This document shows, in pieces, positions 1 through 28,586 of a stretch of 64,000 nt of DNA. Source of the stretch: Escherichia coli (GTDB lineage: Bacteria > Pseudomonadota > Gammaproteobacteria > Enterobacterales > Enterobacteriaceae); assembly GCF_016026235.1 (NCBI RefSeq), contig NZ_CP065613.1; one strand, 5' to 3'. The position numbers were made by a program, and so were the translations under genes. The notes under the pieces were generated by a model. The model worked only from the letters and a program-made list of their open reading frames with translations, had not been told where the DNA came from and did no database searches. Each line of letters begins with the position of its first letter. Positions within the stretch are counted from its first letter, which is position 1.

Positions 1-1013
1 ACTTTGTCGTTCTCCATCACTTTCATAGAACGGAACTTCCACACTTTGATCGGCTTGCCATCCATGCCGTAGCGAGTCTGGCGGAAAATAACCGGCCCCG
101 GTGAGCTCAGTTTCACCGCCAGCGCAATGCAGCACAGCACCAGGGAGATCAGCAGCAGGATAAGCGTCGCCAGCACAATGTCTTCTGCACGTTTTATCAG
201 GCGGTTAACCCCGGAAAGCGGCGTGTCATACAGCGGCACCACCGGTACGCCATTCATCTCTTCGAGGCGTGAATGGAGAATGTTGAAGGTAAAGACATCG
301 GGGATCAGCAGCACCGAACAGGTGGTGTCCGCCAGTTGATGGACCAGTTTTTTCACTCGCGCGCCGTCGCACATCTGCATCGCGATATAGACGTTATGAA
401 TCTTGCCCGCTTTCGCATCCTCGACCAGTTGTTGCAGATTGCCCGCCCAGTCGTTAGAAACGCCACCCGGTTTCAGGTCGTGGTAAACGCCCACCACTTC
501 AAACCCTAACCACGGCTGATTACGGAAGCTCTCCATCAGCATTTGTCCGGCGGCTAAATCCCCCGCCACCGCGACCATGCGCTTGTTATAGCCATGATTA
601 CGCAGCCAGCCCGCCCCAATGCGAATACACGAACGGCAAACCACCAGTCCGATGCTGGTCAGCCCATACCACGCCAGCCAGATTTTCAGTTGCGTGTCGA
701 AATCATTGTTGAACGCCGCCAGTCCGGCGCTGAAAATCACGCTTATGGTCCAGTTTTGTAGCAACAGGGCAAATTCTGTCGCTGCCCGAACACCGCGCCA
801 TGAGCGATAAAAGTCGGTGATGCCGCCCAGCATCTGGAACACCACCAGCGTAATCAGCGCCACCAACAGGTGCATGTAGAGGAATGACAGTCCGCTCACT
901 TCGCAAACCAGCCATAGTCCGGCAAACATGATGGTGATATCTGAAAAGCGTTGCACCATAGAGATTAACGATGCATTGGTTTTCGCTCGCTCGCGCTTTT
1001 TTAGATTTGTCAT
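1..1013 (-). CDS. wcaJ: Undecaprenyl-phosphate glucose phosphotransferase WcaJ, N-terminal part (C-terminus lies beyond the window start)
   Basis: Minus-strand ATG at 1011-1013; manual translation gives MTNLKKRERAKTNASLISMVQRF... followed by hydrophobic TM segments. Not in the ORF track because it has no in-window stop. Lies immediately downstream of cpsG, as in the K-12 wca operon. Confidence 0.8.
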   Translation of the reverse strand, partial: MTNLKKRERAKTNASLISMVQRFSDITIMFAGLWLVCEVSGLSFLYMHLLVALITLVVFQMLGGITDFYRSWRGVRAATEFALLLQNWTISVIFSAGLAAFNNDFDTQLKIWLAWYGLTSIGLVVCRSCIRIGAGWLRNHGYNKRMVAVAGDLAAGQMLMESFRNQPWLGFEVVGVYHDLKPGGVSNDWAGNLQQLVEDAKAGKIHNVYIAMQMCDGARVKKLVHQLADTTCSVLLIPDVFTFNILHSRLEEMNGVPVVPLYDTPLSGVNRLIKRAEDIVLATLILLLISLVLCCIALAVKLSSPGPVIFRQTRYGMDGKPIKVWKFRSMKVMENDK

Positions 1014-1067
1014 CGTTGTTCCTGTTTTTAGCCCCTTACCCGCAGTGGGGTAAGGGAAGATCCGACA

Positions 1068-2438
1068 TTACTCGTTCAGCAACGTCAGCAGAGTTCGCGT
1101 TCGCGCTTCCATCAGCGGCACATCACCGCGTGATTCCACATTCAGGCGCACCACCGGTTCGGTGTTGGAGGAGCGCAGATTAAAGCGCCAGTCGGCAAAG
1201 GTCATGCTGATGCCATCGGTACGATCCACCGCCAGCGCCTCGCGGCTAAAGTGCTGTTCCACGCGGTTAATCGCCTCAACGGGTTGTGCCAGTTTGCTGT
1301 TGATCTCACCGCTTGCCGGAAACGCTGACATCCGGTCGCACACCAGTTCGCCCAGCGTTTTTCCTTTCAGGCACACCAGTTCGGCGACCAGCAGCCACGG
1401 GATCATGCCGCTGTCGCAGTAAGCGAAATCACGGAAGTAATGGTGGGCGCTCATTTCGCCACCGTAGATAGCGTCTTCCTTGCGCATACGTTCTTTAATA
1501 AAGGCGTGTCCGGTTTTCGACATTACCGGGGTGCCGCCTGCGGCAGTCACCACATCAACGGTGTTCCAGGAGAGACGTGGATCGTGGATGATCTTCGCGC
1601 CGGGATTTTTTTCGAGGAACGCTTCTGCCAGCAGGCCGACAATGTAGTAGCCCTCAATAAACTGCCCTTTTTCGTCAAACAGGAAACAGCGGTCAAAATC
1701 GCCATCAAAGGCAATGCCCATATCCGCGCCGTGTTTAATGACCGCATTGCGGGTATCGTCGCGACATTCCGGCAGCAACGGGTTAGGAATACCGTTGGGG
1801 AAATTGCCGTCCGGCGTGTTATGCACTTTGATCAATTCCACCGGTGCGCCGAGGGCTTTAAAGCGGGCTTCAATGGCGTCCACCACCGGACCCGCCGCGC
1901 CGTTCCCGGAGTTAATCACCAGCTTGAGCGGCGTGAGGTTTTTGACGTTGATATAACCGAACAGGTGATCAACGTATGCATCACGCAGGTTGATTTGCTG
2001 ATAGCAACCGCGTTTGGTTTCATCGACGGGAGGAAAGTCGTTGGCTTCTGCCAGACGCTGGACGTCGCGCAGTCCGGTATCGCCGCTGATCGGGCGAGCC
2101 CCTTCGCGCACCAGTTTCATGCCGTTGTAATCCATCGGGTTATGGCTGGCGGTAACTTCAATGCCGCCATCCACGCCAAGATGGAACGTGGCGAAATAGA
2201 TTTCTTCGGTGCCGGACATACCAATATCCAGCACGTCGACGCCCGCATCCTGTAAACCTTTTGCCAGCGCCAGTTTTAAGGTTTCGCTGGTGAGGCGGAC
2301 ATCACCGCCTAACACAATGGTTTTCGGTTTGAGAAATTCGCCATAAGCGCGACCAATGCGCCAGGCAATATCTTCATTCAGTTCTTCGCCTAATTTCCCG
2401 CGAATATCATAGGCTTTAAAGCAGGTTAATTTTTTCAT
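1068..2438 (-). CDS. cpsG: Phosphomannomutase
   Basis: ORF track 1068..2486; start trimmed to [14 protein letters not shown]. Active-site motif TASHNP is present. Confidence 0.92.
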
Positions 2439-21939: not shown

Positions 21940-22581
21940 TTATTCAAAGAACTGACTTATTTTCGCTTTCAATATATCGATCGCGATGCGGTTTTTCCCG
22001 CCGCGCGGCACGATAATGTCCGCATATTGTTTAGAAGGCTCAATGAATTGCAGGAACATCGGGCGCACGGTTTTTTGATATTGCGCCATCACGGAATCCA
22101 TTGAACGCCCACGCTCGTTAACGTCACGCTTGATGCGGCGCATCAGGCAGATATCCAGCGGGGTATCAACGAAAATGGAGAAGTTAAGTTCGTCACGCAA
22201 ACGCGCATCCGTCAGCAACAAAATGCCTTCGAGAATGATGACCTTCTTCGGCTCAACCGTCACCGTTTCTTTCATACGCGTATGTTCAACATAGCTGTAA
22301 ACCGGCAGGTCAATTGCCGAGCCACGTTTCAACGCTTGTAAATGCTCAAGCAACAGGCTGTGATCCATCGCGCTGGGATGGTCGTAGTTGGTCTTAACGC
22401 GTTCTTCCATCGACAGATGGCTTTGATCTTTGTAATAGCAGTCTTCGGGAATTACGCCGATGTGTTCATCACCGACTTGCTCACGTAATTCACGATAAAG
22501 GGTACTGGCAATAAGACTCTTGCCGGAAGCCGATGCGCCAGCGATACCGATAATGACGCACTGATGAGACTGATCAGTCAT
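21940..22581 (-). CDS. udk: Uridine/cytidine kinase
   Basis: ORF track 21940..22644; start trimmed to [22 protein letters not shown] (P-loop). Confidence 0.92.
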
Positions 22582-22898
22582 ATATTTAGCGACCTGATTA
22601 ACCTGGATGTTAGGAAGGGGGCGACGAAGCGCCAAACGCGGCAATTATAGGGATTTCATCCGTCTGATACCAGTCGAATAGCGTTGCCGCGCGCTCAGAG
22701 TTAATTGTTGACAAAGAATTCCCGGTGGCAAATTACGTTGATCAGTTTTATGTAAGGTAAAAAATGTTATACGCAGTTGCGCAAATTATCCGCCTTTACG
22801 TCACTTTATGAGCAATTCGCATATAAAATGTAAAACTTTTGTACTAGCATAAACACAGAAACGAATACTGGCGACCTGGTCTTGCGGATAAAGCGGTA

Positions 22899-25800
22899 AT
22901 GAGCAAACAATCACAGCATGTATTAATTGCCCTGCCCCACCCGCTGCTTCACCTGGTCAGTTTAGGTTTAGTCTCGTTTATCTTTACCCTTTTCTCGCTT
23001 GAGCTTTCGCAGTTTGGCACCCAACTCGCCCCACTGTGGTTCCCGACGTCCATCATGATGGTGGCGTTTTATCGCCATGCCGGGCGCATGTGGCCGGGAA
23101 TTGCGCTGAGCTGTTCGCTGGGAAATATCGCCGCATCCATCCTGCTTTTTTCCACCAGCTCGCTGAACATGACCTGGACGACCATCAATATTGTTGAAGC
23201 CGTGGTCGGGGCAGTGCTGCTACGTAAATTGCTGCCGTGGTATAACCCCTTGCAAAATCTGGCTGACTGGCTGCGTCTGGCACTCGGCAGCGCCATTGTT
23301 CCGCCTCTGTTGGGGGGTGTTCTGGTTGTCCTGCTGACGCCCAGAGACGATCCTCTCAGGGCATTTTTGATATGGGTACTGTCAGAATCCATCGGCGCTC
23401 TGGCACTGGTGCCGCTGGGATTGTTATTTAAACCACACTATCTGCTGCGCCATCGCAACCCACGGTTGCTTTTTGAGTCGCTGCTCACGTTAGCCATCAC
23501 ACTGACGTTAAGCTGGCTTTCGATGCTGTATCTGCCGTGGCCTTTTACTTTCATTATTGTGCTGTTGATGTGGAGCGCCGTGCGCCTGCCACGAATGGAA
23601 GCCTTTTTGATCTTCCTTACCACGGTGATGATGGTGTCGCTGATGATGGCCGCGGATCCCTCCCTGCTTGCTACGCCGCGTACGTACCTGATGAGCCATA
23701 TGCCGTGGCTACCGTTTTTGCTGATCCTGCTGCCCGCCAATATCATGACGATGGTGATGTATGCCTTTCGTACTGAACGAAAGCATATTTCCGAAAGCGA
23801 AACCCGTTTTCGGAACGCCATGGAGTATTCCGCCATCGGCATGGCTCTTGTGGGAACGGAAGGACAATGGCTGCAAGCCAATAAAGCCTTATGTCAGTTT
23901 CTCGGTTACAGTCAGGAAGAGCTGCGCGGACTCACCTTTCAGCAACTGACCTGGCCGGAGGATCTCAATAAAGATCTCCAACAGGTTGAAAAGCTGATAA
24001 GCGGTGAAATAAACACCTATTCAATGGAAAAACGCTACTACAACCGTAATGGCGATGTTGTCTGGGCGTTGCTTGCCGTCTCACTGGTGCGCCACACGGA
24101 TGGCACGCCGCTCTATTTTATCGCTCAGATTGAAGACATTAACGAGCTAAAACGCACCGAACAGGTGAATCAGCAACTGATGGAACGCATCACGCTGGCT
24201 AACGAAGCGGGCGGGATTGGCATCTGGGAGTGGGAGTTGAAGCCGAATATTTTTAGCTGGGATAAGCGGATGTTCGAGCTGTATGAAATTCCTCCACATA
24301 TCAAACCGAACTGGCAGGTGTGGTACGAGTGCGTGCTGCCGGAAGATCGCCAGCATGCCGAAAAAGTGATTCGTGATTCGTTGCAATCACGCTCGCCCTT
24401 TAAACTGGAATTTCGCATTACCGTAAAAGACGGTATTCGCCATATCCGCGCCCTCGCCAACCGGGTACTGAATAAAGAAGGCGAAGTCGAACGCCTGCTC
24501 GGCATTAATATGGATATGACTGAGGTTAAACAGCTTAACGAGGCATTGTTTCAGGAAAAAGAGCGCCTGCACATTACGCTGGACTCCATCGGCGAAGCCG
24601 TGGTCTGTATTGATATGGCAATGAAAATTACCTTTATGAATCCAGTGGCGGAGAAGATGAGAGGCTGGACGCAGGAAGAAGCATTAGGTGTTCCGCTCCT
24701 GACGGTGTTGCATATTACCTTTGGCGACAATGGTCCCCTGATGGAGAACATTTACAGTGCCGACACCTCACGTTCCGCGATTGAACAAGATGTGGTGTTG
24801 CACTGCCGGAGCGGCGGCAGCTACGACGTGCATTACAGTATTACGCCGTTAAGTACTCTGGACGGCAGCAATATTGGTTCGGTTCTGGTGATTCAGGACG
24901 TTACCGAATCACGCAAAATGCTGCGCCAGCTGAGCTACAGCGCCTCCCATGATGCACTGACGCATCTCGCCAATCGCGCCAGTTTTGAGAAACAACTGCG
25001 TATCCTGCTGCAAACGGTAAACAGTACACATCAGCGACATGCCCTGGTGTTTATCGATCTTGATCGCTTTAAAGCGGTGAATGACAGCGCCGGGCATGCG
25101 GCGGGTGACGCTTTGCTGCGCGAACTGGCGTCGTTAATGCTGAGTATGCTGCGTTCCAGCGACGTGCTGGCGCGACTCGGTGGGGATGAATTTGGTCTGC
25201 TGCTACCAGACTGTAATGTTGAAAGCGCGCGTTTTATCGCTACACGCATTATCAGTGCCGTGAATGACTATCACTTTATCTGGGAAGGACGTGTACATCG
25301 GGTAGGTGCCAGTGCCGGGATTACCTTGATTGATGACAACAATCATCAGGCGGCTGAAGTGATGTCGCAGGCTGATATCGCCTGTTATGCCTCCAAAAAT
25401 GGTGGCCGGGGCCGGGTGACGATTTACGAACCGCAGCAAGCTGCCGCACATAGCGAGCGGGCAGCGATGTCGCTTGATGAACAGTGGCGGATGATTAAAG
25501 AGAATCAGTTGATGATGATCGCCCACGGTGTCGCTTCGCCACGGATCCCGGAAGCACGTAATTTGTGGCTGATTTCACTTAAGCTCTGGAATTGCGAAGG
25601 CGAGATTATTGATGAACAAACATTTCGTCGTAGCTTCAGCGATCCGGCACTTAGCCATGCTCTTGACCGACGGGTATTCCACGATTTTTTCCAGCAGGCC
25701 GCCAAAGCGGTTGCCAGTAAAGGCATAAGCATCGCCCTCCCTCTTTCCGTTGCCGGTTTGAGTAGCGCCACGCTGGTGAATGATCTGCTTGAGCAGCTGG

Positions 25801-26216
25801 AAAATAGCCCTCTACCACCACGGTTATTACATCTGATTATTCCGGCTGAAGCGATTTTAGATCACGCAGTAAGCGTGCAAAAACTGCGGCTGGCGGGATG
25901 TCGGATAGTGCTCAGCCAGGTGGGCCGCGATCTGCAAATCTTCAACTCGCTGAAAGCGAATATGGCAGATTACCTGCTACTTGATGGTGAGTTATGCGCC
26001 AACGTGCAGGGTAATTTGATGGATGAGATGCTGATTACGATTATTCAGGGGCACGCTCAGCGACTCGGGATGAAAACCATCGCCGGGCCAGTCGTTTTAC
26101 CCTTAGTGATGGATACGCTTTCTGGCATCGGCGTCGATCTGATTTATGGTGATGTGATTGCCGATGCCCAACCGCTGGATTTGCTGGTGAATAGCAGTTA
26201 TTTCGCGATTAACTGA
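22899..26216 (+). CDS. dgcE: Diguanylate cyclase DgcE (N-terminal membrane domain, PAS domains, GGDEF, degenerate EAL-like C-terminus)
   Basis: 1105 aa; multi-TM N-terminus; GGDEF motif in RLGGDEFGLLLPD; C-terminal region lacks an obvious E-A-L catalytic motif. Confidence 0.9.
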   Translation: MSKQSQHVLIALPHPLLHLVSLGLVSFIFTLFSLELSQFGTQLAPLWFPTSIMMVAFYRHAGRMWPGIALSCSLGNIAASILLFSTSSLNMTWTTINIVEAVVGAVLLRKLLPWYNPLQNLADWLRLALGSAIVPPLLGGVLVVLLTPRDDPLRAFLIWVLSESIGALALVPLGLLFKPHYLLRHRNPRLLFESLLTLAITLTLSWLSMLYLPWPFTFIIVLLMWSAVRLPRMEAFLIFLTTVMMVSLMMAADPSLLATPRTYLMSHMPWLPFLLILLPANIMTMVMYAFRTERKHISESETRFRNAMEYSAIGMALVGTEGQWLQANKALCQFLGYSQEELRGLTFQQLTWPEDLNKDLQQVEKLISGEINTYSMEKRYYNRNGDVVWALLAVSLVRHTDGTPLYFIAQIEDINELKRTEQVNQQLMERITLANEAGGIGIWEWELKPNIFSWDKRMFELYEIPPHIKPNWQVWYECVLPEDRQHAEKVIRDSLQSRSPFKLEFRITVKDGIRHIRALANRVLNKEGEVERLLGINMDMTEVKQLNEALFQEKERLHITLDSIGEAVVCIDMAMKITFMNPVAEKMRGWTQEEALGVPLLTVLHITFGDNGPLMENIYSADTSRSAIEQDVVLHCRSGGSYDVHYSITPLSTLDGSNIGSVLVIQDVTESRKMLRQLSYSASHDALTHLANRASFEKQLRILLQTVNSTHQRHALVFIDLDRFKAVNDSAGHAAGDALLRELASLMLSMLRSSDVLARLGGDEFGLLLPDCNVESARFIATRIISAVNDYHFIWEGRVHRVGASAGITLIDDNNHQAAEVMSQADIACYASKNGGRGRVTIYEPQQAAAHSERAAMSLDEQWRMIKENQLMMIAHGVASPRIPEARNLWLISLKLWNCEGEIIDEQTFRRSFSDPALSHALDRRVFHDFFQQAAKAVASKGISIALPLSVAGLSSATLVNDLLEQLENSPLPPRLLHLIIPAEAILDHAVSVQKLRLAGCRIVLSQVGRDLQIFNSLKANMADYLLLDGELCANVQGNLMDEMLITIIQGHAQRLGMKTIAGPVVLPLVMDTLSGIGVDLIYGDVIADAQPLDLLVNSSYFAIN

Positions 26217-26225
26217 GGGAGCGTT

Positions 26226-26262
26226 TGCCCATTGCCTGATGCGACATATCAGGCCTACAATT
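26226..26262. repeat. REP-like element between dgcE and alkA
   Basis: GCCTGATGCGACATATCAGGCCTAC (short variant). Confidence 0.6.
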
Positions 26263-27112
26263 CGTCCGTTCCGTCTGGTTGCCAGCCTTCCGTATACCAG
26301 ATATGCAACAGCGCATAAGAACGCCAGGGCTTCCAGCGCTCGGCATAACGGCGGATTTGTGCCGGTGTCATCCCCGGAAATCGCTGTTTAATCAGATAAT
26401 CATCCGGCAGAAAAACATCTTTCGCCTGCCAGCCACGCAAAGCGAAATAATTCGCCGTCCAGCGCCCAATACCCGGAAAAGTTTGCAGCGTTTTCATCGC
26501 CTGCTCCACATCGCCCGGAATTGTCATTGGTAAGCTGCCCTCCAGCGCCGCATTTGCCAGATGAATCAGTGCCTCTGCCCGTTTCAACGGCATGCCTAAC
26601 GCTTTTAATGCCTGCGGGTCGGCTGCTGCCAGCCGCTGAGGCGTGGGGAAGCAGATATACTCCGGAAAATCATCCAGCCGTTCGCCATAAAGCTGTACAA
26701 CTTTGGCAGTCAATTTTGCCGCCATCGCCACGCTCACCAGTTGGCCTAAAATCGCCCGCACACCCTGCTCAAAAGCATCAATACAGCCGGGTAAACGCAA
26801 TCCGGGCCGCGCCGCGCCTAACTTGCCCAACGCACCGTTAACAATCTGCGGGTTACATTGCAGATCAAACAGGCGGCTCATTTTCGCCAGACACTCAGCG
26901 GCAACGGGTTCTAAACCTGCACTTAAATTTATGTGCAGAGTATGGCGGGCTATATCCGGAATAGCAGTCACCACGCCGCGATATTCGCCCACCGCCAGAC
27001 TACGGGCATAATAATCCTCAGCGACCGTTTCCACACCACTCACTGCACGGGCGGCGAGAAATCCCAACATCCACGACCAGTCATACGGCGGCTGCCAGTT
27101 CAGGGTATACAT
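26255..27112 (-). CDS. alkA: DNA-3-methyladenine glycosylase II
   Basis: 285 aa; MYTLNWQPPYDWSWMLGFLAARAV...; HhH-GPD fold. Confidence 0.9.
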   Translation of the reverse strand: MYTLNWQPPYDWSWMLGFLAARAVSGVETVAEDYYARSLAVGEYRGVVTAIPDIARHTLHINLSAGLEPVAAECLAKMSRLFDLQCNPQIVNGALGKLGAARPGLRLPGCIDAFEQGVRAILGQLVSVAMAAKLTAKVVQLYGERLDDFPEYICFPTPQRLAAADPQALKALGMPLKRAEALIHLANAALEGSLPMTIPGDVEQAMKTLQTFPGIGRWTANYFALRGWQAKDVFLPDDYLIKQRFPGMTPAQIRRYAERWKPWRSYALLHIWYTEGWQPDGTDEL

Positions 27113-27245: not shown

Positions 27246-28586
27246 GTGTTTATTGGTTTTGATTACGGTACAGCAAACTGTTCAGTGGCGGTCATGCGTG
27301 ACGGTAAACCGCAATTACTGAAAATGGAAAACGACAGCACGCTGCTGCCTTCAATGCTTTGCGCGCCAACGCGTGAAGCAGTAAGTGAATGGCTGTACCG
27401 CCATCATGATGTTCCGGCAGACGACGATGAAACGCAGGCGCTGTTACGTCGGGCGATTCGTTATAACCGCGAAGAAGATATCGATGTTACGGCGAAAAGC
27501 GTGCAGTTCGGTCTTTCCTCACTGGCACAGTACATTGATGATCCAGAAGAAGTGTGGCTTGTGAAATCACCAAAATCGTTCCTCGGTGCCAGCGGCTTAA
27601 AACCGCAGCAGGTAGCGCTGTTTGAGGATCTGGTCTGCGCAATGATGTTGCACATTCGCCAGCAGGCGCAGGCGCAGCTGCCAGAAGCGATTACTCAGGC
27701 GGTGATTGGTCGCCCGATCAACTTCCAGGGGCTGGGCGGCGATGAAGCAAACGCCCAGGCGCAAGGGATTCTGGAACGCGCGGCGAAGCGTGCCGGATTC
27801 AGGGACGTGGTATTCCAGTACGAGCCGGTCGCGGCTGGGCTGGATTACGAGGAAGAAAAACGGGTGCTGGTGGTGGATATCGGCGGTGGTACGACTGACT
27901 GTTCATTGCTGCTGATGGGACCGCAGTGGCGTTCGCGTCTCGATCGTGAAGCCAGCCTGCTGGGTCACAGTGGTTGTCGTATTGGCGGTAACGATCTGGA
28001 TATCGCCCTGGCGTTTAAAAACCTGATGCCACTGCTGGGTATGGGTGGCGAAACCGAAAAAGGCATCGCCCTGCCGATCCTGCCGTGGTGGAATGCGGTT
28101 GCCATCAACGACGTACCTGCGCAGAGTGATTTCTACAGTAGTACCAACGGTCGTCTGCTTAACGATCTGGTACGCGATGCCCGCGAACCGGAAAAAGTGG
28201 CCCTGTTACAGAAAGTCTGGCGTCAGCGTTTAAGCTATCGCCTAGTGCGTAGCGCAGAAGAGTGCAAAATTGCTCTTTCAAGCGTAGCGGAAACCCGCGC
28301 CTCACTGCCGTTTATCAGCAATGAACTGGCTACGCTGATTAGCCAGCGAGGGCTGGAAAGCGCCCTCAGCCAGCCACTGGCGCGGATTCTGGAACAGGTG
28401 CAACTGGCCCTGGATAACGCCCAGGAAAAACCGGACGTTATCTACCTGACCGGCGGTAGCGCCCGTTCTCCGCTGATTAAAAAAGCGCTGGCAGAACAGT
28501 TGCCGGGCATTCCGATTGCAGGCGGCGATGACTTTGGCTCCGTCACCGCCGGGCTGGCACGCTGGGCGGAAGTGGTGTTTCGTTAA
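27246..28586 (+). CDS. yegD: Hsp70-family (actin-fold ATPase) protein YegD
   Basis: 446 aa; N-terminal phosphate-1 motif IGFDYGTANCSVAV and later DIGGGTTDCSL. Confidence 0.88.
   Translation: MFIGFDYGTANCSVAVMRDGKPQLLKMENDSTLLPSMLCAPTREAVSEWLYRHHDVPADDDETQALLRRAIRYNREEDIDVTAKSVQFGLSSLAQYIDDPEEVWLVKSPKSFLGASGLKPQQVALFEDLVCAMMLHIRQQAQAQLPEAITQAVIGRPINFQGLGGDEANAQAQGILERAAKRAGFRDVVFQYEPVAAGLDYEEEKRVLVVDIGGGTTDCSLLLMGPQWRSRLDREASLLGHSGCRIGGNDLDIALAFKNLMPLLGMGGETEKGIALPILPWWNAVAINDVPAQSDFYSSTNGRLLNDLVRDAREPEKVALLQKVWRQRLSYRLVRSAEECKIALSSVAETRASLPFISNELATLISQRGLESALSQPLARILEQVQLALDNAQEKPDVIYLTGGSARSPLIKKALAEQLPGIPIAGGDDFGSVTAGLARWAEVVFR

Follow-up and report, generated by a model that had tools for sequence, protein, structure and literature searches.

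What does the C-terminal region of a membrane-anchored GGDEF protein do when it resembles an EAL domain without carrying the motif for which that domain is named? This question is raised by a gene in a 64,000-nucleotide stretch of the Escherichia coli contig NZ_CP065613.1 (RefSeq assembly GCF_016026235.1; hereinafter the window). A preliminary description, made from the sequence alone, had named the gene product DgcE and had read in it an intact GGDEF domain followed by a degenerate, probably regulatory, EAL domain. We examined the fold, the catalytic positions and the conservation of this domain (henceforth EALdeg) and related the results to what has been published for the K-12 protein.

The dgcE gene and the fold of its C-terminal domain

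The gene matches the NCBIfam equivalog NF007298, which represents the DgcE/YegE orthologue group, over its full length (residues 1-1105 against profile positions 1-1111) with 2063.7 bits against a curated cut-off of 1135. This match, the dgcE annotation carried by the closest genomes and the udk-dgcE-alkA synteny bear out the name given earlier, the gene order asmA-dcd-udk, dgcE, alkA-yegD-yegI being identical in the window, K-12, ATCC 8739 and VL40. Of 5426 complete E. coli genomes, 5416 carry the gene; the allele in the window is rare, with two of these 5416 genomes at least 99% identical to it over the gene. K-12 DgcE (YegE, b2067) is the same gene, encoding a protein of the same 1105 aa, with 97.8% nucleotide identity and 12 amino-acid differences; its domain order, the flanking udk and alkA and all the degenerate positions described below are identical. 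Within EALdeg the differences between K-12 and this allele are L874I, S898N, E929D, S946A, E991V and E1085D, which are conservative or of the surface type.

The Pfam matches give the domain order MASE1, three PAS, GGDEF and EAL (Table 1), with the PAS region resolved into three stretches by the Pfam models and also into three by TIGR00229. The GGDEF catalytic motif is retained, as had been stated: the string quoted in support of it, RLGGDEFGLLLPD, is present, with the GGDEF residues at aa 761-765. A scan of positions 22500-26500 for promoters and terminators returned nothing exceeding the shuffled expectation. Two open reading frames on the opposite strand (25203..25526 and 25505..25771, minus strand) were rejected as mechanical, lying as they do inside the conserved coding sequence and without support.

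Table 1. Features of dgcE, with positions numbered from the first nucleotide of the window
Feature	Residues (aa)	Positions	Strand	Basis or remark
dgcE (yegE) coding sequence, with TGA stop	1-1105	22899..26216	+	ORF list, NF007298
MASE1 membrane domain	19-295	22953..23783	+	Pfam PF05231, E = 1.2e-36
Three PAS domains	303-672	23805..24914	+	Pfam PAS, PAS_3, PAS_4, PAS_9; TIGR00229
GGDEF domain	682-838	24942..25412	+	Pfam PF00990, E = 1.1e-45
RSSD I-site, intact		25152..25163	+	five residues upstream of the GGDEF motif
GGDEF motif, intact	761-765	25179..25193	+	
EALdeg, complete EAL-type barrel	859-1098	25473..26192	+	AF2, Foldseek
Strand LWLISLKLW at the E-A-L-x-R site	889-897	25563..25589	+	AF2 strand, domain residues 39-47
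LISLK, EALxR equivalent	891-895	25569..25583	+	FimX pairwise alignment (EVLLR with LISLK)
Pfam EAL match within EALdeg	898-1088	25590..26162	+	74.9 bits
P948 at the metal-ligand Asn	948	25740..25742	+	four methods; Pro in 20/23 homologues
I980-I-P-A983 at ExxE	980-983	25836..25847	+	MAFFT, custom HMM, hhalign
SQVGRDLQIF at DDFGTGYSSL (loop 6)		25914..25943	+	four methods
L1027 at the catalytic Lys (KxD)	1027	25977..25979	+	four methods
G1063-P-V-V1066 at EGVE (general-base Glu)	1063-1066	26085..26096	+	four methods; Gly in 22/22 homologues
Y1083-G1084 at QG	1083-1084	26145..26150	+	MAFFT, hhalign, phmmer pairwise; Tyr or Phe in 21/21 homologues

The Pfam EAL model (PF00563) matches the C-terminal region at 74.9 bits in the context of the whole protein (E = 8e-21) and at 79.6 bits when the isolated 255 aa are searched (E = 3e-22), against a cut-off of 31.3 bits. 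An AlphaFold2 (AF2) model of EALdeg was obtained with a pLDDT of 90.6 and a pTM of 0.88. Comparison of this model with the PDB using Foldseek recovered about 50 solved EAL domains at TM 0.74-0.83, including those of FimX, RbdA, LapD, TBD1265, RocR, MorA and PA3825, with E-values down to 4e-15 over about 250 columns. The EAL resemblance of the DgcE C-terminus is no chance match. A degenerate EAL domain of about 250 aa, as had been described, is therefore present in both respects, the Pfam match being real and the catalytic residues all replaced (see below); the start assigned to it, 25450, misses the reading frame by one base, codon 851 beginning at 25449. A joint AF2 model running from the linker helix through GGDEF to the end of EALdeg (aa 655-1105; pTM 0.56) was discarded, the pLDDT of its GGDEF half lying below 50 because few of the aligned homologues span GGDEF.

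Replacement of the catalytic positions

The check suggested in the preliminary description, a profile alignment with inspection of the catalytic residues, was run in four ways: a MAFFT alignment with five active K-12 EAL domains (PdeL, PdeH, PdeR, DosP and PdeG), a custom hidden Markov model of those five, profile-profile alignment with hhalign, and pairwise phmmer alignments to the EAL domains of RbdA and FimX, both of solved structure. None of these procedures revealed a conserved catalytic signature, the finding that would have refuted the preliminary description, anywhere along the domain, and all four concur that none of the 10 canonical catalytic, metal-binding and substrate-binding positions is kept in DgcE. 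The degeneracy hence extends far past the missing triplet that had first been noted. The absence of E-A-L or E-V-L from its expected place is itself confirmed: between residue 841 and the C-terminus, E-x-L triplets occur just twice, as EQL at 965 and as EML at 1043, both away from the motif position.

The strand at the E-A-L-x-R site is devoid of acidic residues, the closest Glu residues being E885 and E900. Support for its register comes from MAFFT, which puts S893 in the Glu column of the motif, from the pairwise alignment to FimX and from the strand assigned by AF2. None of the sequence profiles (Pfam, custom HMM, hhalign) aligns this strand or the first 50 residues of the domain: the Pfam match sets in at position 38-39 of the 236-position profile, and the custom HMM and hhalign alignments begin at aa 922 and aa 907, respectively, both downstream of the motif. 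For this reason it is uncertain whether L891 or S893 faces the old Glu position. Two candidates for a displaced motif were rejected, P-E-A-R (884-887) as part of a loop six residues ahead of the motif site, and A-E-A-I-L (983-987) as sitting at the ExxE rather than the EAL position.

Further along the barrel, S1006 and Q1007 occupy the positions of the two metal-ligand Asp residues, with Ser or Thr at 1006 in all 23 homologues, and the loop 6 signature DFG(T/A)GYSS reads Q-V-G-R-D-L-Q-I (aa 1007-1014) in DgcE, retaining G1009 only. The Gln of the YQP motif is replaced by S880. At ExxE, E984 stands one residue past the second Glu; the RbdA pairwise alignment shifts the register here by one residue, and in both registers Glu is found at neither position. 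DgcE retains just five of the 26 columns that are invariant in the five active EAL domains, all five being Pro, Gly, Leu or Val. It is far more degenerate in this regard than CsrD (11/26) and BluF (YcgF; 16/26), E. coli proteins with EAL folds that have lost hydrolytic residues and act by macromolecular interactions. The same ordering is seen with the active-EAL HMM, which scores DgcE at 11.6 bits, CsrD at 54.6 and BluF at 88.7. Judged by its sequence, EALdeg lacks the catalytic features that mark active EAL phosphodiesterases. Given the loss of the metal, catalytic-water and phosphate-binding residues, it is predicted to be unable to hydrolyze c-di-GMP, and canonical binding of c-di-GMP is very probably absent as well. 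Pfiffer et al. 2019 (PMC6510439) likewise found the K-12 domain to be without all key residues, including those that bind c-di-GMP, and argued the loss of binding from the sequence.

Conservation and selection

The replacements at the mouth of the barrel (L894, P948, S/T1006, G1063 and Y/F1083) recur in 22 homologues of 48-98% identity and are conserved across genera at least as well as the domain average; L894 is invariant, and the neighboring position 895, a Lys in E. coli, is occupied by Arg in 16 of 23 homologues. The degenerate state thus appears to be old and conserved across enterobacterial homologues. The homologue search yielded fragments of at most 446 aa and zero full-length orthologues, and the cross-genus comparison of domains comes from one sequence, P0015, the sole one to cover all of GGDEF; it is 63% identical in EALdeg versus 84% in GGDEF. 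The best-conserved blocks of EALdeg are aa 1046-1060 (identity 0.80), which from its place in the fold we would assign to helix alpha6, and the last 15 residues (0.79); the loop 6 block, aa 1001-1015, has an identity of 0.71.

Relative to K-12, dN/dS was estimated from three alleles at 0.22 for EALdeg and 0.045 for the rest of the gene (Fisher p = 0.02 on small counts). A value of about 0.2 suggests that EALdeg, degenerate as it is, is maintained by selection and is not decaying.

A probable inhibitory EAL domain and the alternatives to it

We regard it as highly probable that the DgcE C-terminus is an EAL barrel that lacks the catalytic set and acts as a brake on the cyclase. The fold, the catalytic loss, the cross-genus conservation and the purifying selection were obtained in this analysis, and the inhibitory phenotype, the dimerization and the effect on oligomers come from the work of others on the K-12 protein. 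In the latter, deletion of the EAL domain hyperactivates DgcE and raises CsgD and matrix output, SDS-resistant DgcE oligomers build up without the domain, and isolated EALdeg gives a dimerization signal in a two-hybrid assay; the effect of EALdeg is independent of RdcA/RdcB (PMC6510439). The earlier surmise that the domain is probably regulatory agrees with these genetics. Mechanistically, the MASE1/RdcAB system and the PAS3 region would promote DgcE oligomerization, which would unite two GGDEF domains, and self-association of EALdeg would hinder the formation of productive oligomers; as a secondary effect, monomeric DgcE would be more exposed to proteolysis. This steric model is a hypothesis of the original authors, put forward without a solved structure (PMC6510439). 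For the allele studied here, with its six differences in the domain, we infer the same braking function along with the steric details.

Among solved structures, FimX is the best match by sequence and fold, and FimX and LapD are the top neighbors of EALdeg on both measures, raising the question of whether EALdeg is a catalytically dead c-di-GMP receptor of their type that would exert product feedback on the adjacent cyclase. The EAL domain of P. fluorescens LapD (3pjt, 3pjw; TMq 0.80, 20% identity) is, like that of DgcE, degenerate, C-terminal in a membrane-anchored GGDEF-EAL protein, autoinhibitory and dimerizing; it autoinhibits by clamping the pre-GGDEF helix with helix alpha6 and loop 6 (PMC3032553). 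The catalytically inactive FimX domain (P. aeruginosa and Xanthomonas; 3hv8, 4j40, 7lkq), whose solved structures include c-di-GMP complexes (3hv8, 4fok, 4fou), likewise has S-Q at the DD position in P. aeruginosa, and the Lys at 895, Arg in most homologues, matches an Arg that is central in the ligand site of LapD (PMC3032553). However, FimX retains E-V-L-L-R and the Lys of the catalytic position where DgcE has L-I-S-L-K and Leu, and LapD retains Val-Leu and Arg450 of its K-V-L-x-R, binds c-di-GMP and has a dead GGDEF domain, whereas DgcE has an active GGDEF domain and its EAL domain appears to have lost the ligand contacts. DgcE is without the Glu, the YQP Gln (S880), the Asn, both Asp, the EGVE Glu and the QG Gln, the binding residues are also absent according to PMC6510439, and the intact RSSD I-site already supplies feedback inhibition; a receptor role is accordingly highly improbable. 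The chance that EALdeg functions as a phosphodiesterase through some unconventional active site is virtually nil: it does retain the complete barrel and has E984 (Asp in most homologues) one residue off the second ExxE Glu, but in place of every metal ligand, the catalytic Lys and the general-base Glu it carries Pro, Ile, Ala, Ser, Gln, Leu, Gly or Tyr, and the inhibitory effect has been ascribed to a non-hydrolytic cause (PMC6510439). RbdA (PA0861; 5xgb, 8pps) shares the PAS-GGDEF-EAL order with DgcE and is the best phmmer match (1.2e-07; TMq 0.81), but the aligned part of its EAL domain keeps the N, ExxE, DD, K, first EGVE Glu and Q, and it is described as a phosphodiesterase (PMC6510439).

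That EALdeg might instead be a neutral, functionless relic, kept through its fusion to an essential part of the protein, would fit its faster evolution relative to the other domains, seen both in dN/dS and in the cross-genus sequence, but dN/dS is far under 1, the fold is predicted with confidence, the reading frame is uninterrupted and homologues as distant as 48% identity share the specific replacement residues; as the relic view is also contradicted by the gain of activity upon deletion (PMC6510439), it is exceedingly unlikely. A less improbable, if still unlikely, alternative is that EALdeg serves other members of the c-di-GMP supermodule, for instance PdeR or DgcM, as a docking surface, instead of or besides being a self-associating brake. 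BluF and RflP/YdiV act via binding of partner proteins, and the C-terminal half and the tail are the most conserved parts of EALdeg. In the two-hybrid maps of PMC5635695, which also lists BluF and CsrD, two proteins with degenerate EAL domains, as non-enzymatic regulators, the cytoplasmic part of DgcE interacts with PdeR and several phosphodiesterases; in the text consulted, the interaction is not mapped to EALdeg. Moreover, when the EAL domain is deleted the pathway is activated and DgcE is not uncoupled from PdeR, upstream of which it still acts (PMC6510439). As for the braking domain itself, it is very unlikely that the old active-site pocket has been remodeled and is not just dead, although the conservation of the replacements at the barrel mouth would fit a pocket that has come to bind another small ligand or some stretch of peptide, perhaps the PAS3-GGDEF linker helix, which would tune the brake.

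The role of EALdeg as an inhibitory regulatory domain is already published (PMC6510439). What is added here is the residue table in window coordinates, the measure of degeneracy relative to CsrD and BluF, the cross-genus conservation and a confident model of the fold, which leave the accepted picture of DgcE unaltered. In E. coli biofilms DgcE is the top-level cyclase by which CsgD, curli and cellulose are switched on, and its output can be read correctly only if its EAL domain is understood to act as a brake rather than as an enzyme.

The dgcE gene and its surroundings

The 1105-codon ORF at 22899..26216 (+) encodes the diguanylate cyclase DgcE (YegE), in agreement with the preliminary description: the NCBIfam equivalog NF007298 spans the whole protein (2063.7 bits vs a cut-off of 1135), of 5426 complete E. 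coli genomes, Megablast matches the gene, annotated as dgcE, in 5416, and the flanking genes, asmA-dcd-udk upstream and alkA-yegD-yegI downstream, are the same in strains K-12, ATCC 8739 and VL40. The region of interest comprises the last 255 codons, whose start had been placed at 25450; this is off the reading frame by one base, as codon 851 starts at 25449. The string quoted earlier for an intact catalytic GGDEF motif is found as well, with GGDEF at aa 761-765 and an RSSD I-site five residues upstream.

Against K-12, dS is 0.18 in the PAS-coding part of dgcE vs 0.03-0.05 in the MASE1, GGDEF and EAL parts, which suggests that the former is a recombinant segment and the allele a mosaic; only 2 of the 5416 genomes show at least 99% identity over the entire gene. 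The closest relative of the window across 11.3 kb is VL40, with 12 SNPs. Nine SNPs in this 11.3-kb stretch set the window apart from VL40 and ATCC 8739 alike, eight of them G to A on the + strand; the one at 23343 produces DgcE G149R in MASE1. Because this one-strand G:C to A:T bias over 11.3 kb resembles the outcome of alkylating-agent mutagenesis or cytosine deamination, the source lineage may have been mutagenised or be otherwise unusual.

The spacer between the convergent dgcE and alkA genes (26217-26254; 38 bp) contains a REP-like hairpin (GCCTGATGCGACATATCAGGC) and is identical in ATCC 8739 and VL40; in K-12 it measures 108 bp. Further downstream, yegD (27246..28586 +), coding for an Hsp70-family protein, carries an in-frame 12-nt deletion at 27849/27850 that takes out A-T-L-Q from between LDYE and EEKRVLVVDIGGGTTD, shortly before the DIGGGTTD segment. 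This deletion is not present in K-12, ATCC 8739 or VL40, and among the 5408 complete E. coli genomes that match, none aligns gap-free (best 97.1%, 401/413). Elsewhere, an ISEc20 (IS110-family) insertion splits dgcE itself in several E. coli genomes of human, cattle and bovine-faeces origin, and in Shigella sonnei an annotated 296-aa fragment corresponds to the C-terminal domain alone; interrupted Shigella dgcE is reported to add c-di-GMP nonetheless (PMC11327459).

Domains of DgcE, residues at the canonical EAL positions, and SNPs private to the window
Feature	DgcE residues	Window position	Basis
MASE1	19-295		Pfam
Three PAS domains (PAS-coding part)		23805-24914	Pfam
GGDEF domain	682-838		Pfam, E = 1.1e-45
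EAL domain	898-1088		Pfam, 74.9 bits vs cut-off 31.3
E-A-L-x-R	L891-I892-S893-L894-K895	25569-25583	MAFFT, S893 in Glu column
Metal-ligand Asn	P948	25740-25742	
ExxE	I980 and A983	25836-25847	
Asp-Asp of DDFG	S1006-Q1007	25914-25919	
Catalytic Lys	L1027	25977-25979	
EGVE	G1063 and V1066	26085-26096	
Gln of QG	Y1083	26145-26147	
Private SNPs		21051, 21530, 21740, 22324, 23343, 26246, 26468, 28244 (and 27558)	

Catalytic positions of the C-terminal domain

The degenerate EAL domain (EALdeg) was aligned using MAFFT with the active K-12 EAL domains of PdeL, PdeH, PdeR, DosP and PdeG and the degenerate ones of CsrD and BluF, all comparators being taken from NC_000913.3. Profile alignment and inspection of the catalytic residues found the canonical residues replaced throughout. 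Downstream of the motif, the assignments agree across three other methods, namely an HMM trained on the five active domains, profile-profile comparison with hhalign, and phmmer pairwise alignments with the solved RbdA and FimX domains; the ExxE register is off by one residue in the RbdA alignment, with Glu in neither register. One position past the lost second Glu of ExxE is an acidic residue, E984 (25848-25850), Asp in the majority consensus of homologues, possibly a remnant of the Glu responsible for positioning loop 6 in active EAL domains.

The signature itself lies in a strand that could not be aligned by any sequence profile tried: the matches start at profile position 38-39 of 236 (Pfam), aa 922 (custom HMM) and aa 907 (hhalign). 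Only two E-x-L triplets occur between residue 841 and the C-terminus (EQL at 965, EML at 1043), neither of them at the signature position, which bears out the earlier claim that E-A-L and E-V-L are missing there. In the AF2 model, aa 889-897 (LWLISLKLW) form a beta-strand that has no acidic residue, and the phmmer alignment sets FimX EVLLR opposite DgcE LISLK; the signature Glu is therefore missing whatever the register.

Of 26 columns invariant among the five active domains, DgcE retains five, all structural (P881, G1009, L1018, V1065 and G1084), vs 11 in CsrD and 16 in BluF; the active-EAL HMM scores are 11.6, 54.6 and 88.7 bits, respectively. The domain is thus degenerate, as first described, and judged by its residues it cannot act as a phosphodiesterase of any known type; an unconventional hydrolase is very unlikely.

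Fold, conservation and probable regulatory role

EALdeg is predicted to keep the EAL fold: the AF2 model (pLDDT 90.6, pTM 0.88; alignment of 23 sequences) has the strand-helix alternation typical of the barrel, and its top Foldseek matches in the PDB are EAL domains only (FimX, RbdA, LapD, TBD1265 (2r6o), RocR (3sy8), MorA and PA3825; TM 0.74-0.83 and 10-22% identity across ~250 columns). Its proximity to FimX and LapD, together with an Arg/Lys at position 895, would fit a c-di-GMP receptor, a reading weakened by the loss of the remaining pocket residues and by the normal I-site already there for feedback.

A database search with the domain recovered 62 relatives, some labelled Salmonella and Leclercia, with a lowest identity of 48%. 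Replacement residues, counted using 22 of these relatives, are conserved (L894 23/23, P948 20/23, S/T1006 23/23, G1063 22/22, Y/F1083 21/21), with Arg at position 895 in 16/23. EALdeg changes faster than GGDEF (63% vs 84% identity in one homologue), and its dN/dS against K-12 is 0.22 vs 0.045 for the remaining gene (Fisher p = 0.02, small counts), far below the neutral value. Conservation peaks at 0.80 (aa 1046-1060) and 0.79 (the C-terminal tail), with 0.71 in the loop-6 block (1001-1015). These comparisons indicate an old degeneracy that has been maintained. The conservation contradicts a relic without function, as does the published deletion phenotype: K-12 DgcE without its EAL domain gives increased CsgD, csgB::lacZ and matrix output (PMC6510439).

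In the same study, isolated EALdeg gave a dimerisation signal, SDS-resistant DgcE oligomers built up when it was missing, and its effect was independent of the RdcA/RdcB GTPase system, which activates DgcE through MASE1 (PMC6510439). The authors proposed that EALdeg dimers would sterically hinder productive PAS3/GGDEF oligomerisation. We infer the same behaviour for the window allele, which differs from K-12 within the domain by L874I, S898N, E929D, S946A, E991V and E1085D. The degenerate EAL domain of LapD uses alpha6 and loop 6 to clamp the helix before GGDEF (PMC3032553), and by analogy DgcE may adopt a similar geometry. A partner-docking surface, compatible with other readings, is possible given the position of DgcE as an interaction hub (PMC5635695); no mapping of its interactions to EALdeg was found in the literature consulted.

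The domain is the already known EALdeg of DgcE, a description repeated in PMC11327459, and the preliminary finding is correct and ordinary; added here are a coordinate-level residue table, a degeneracy comparison, cross-genus conservation and a fold model.
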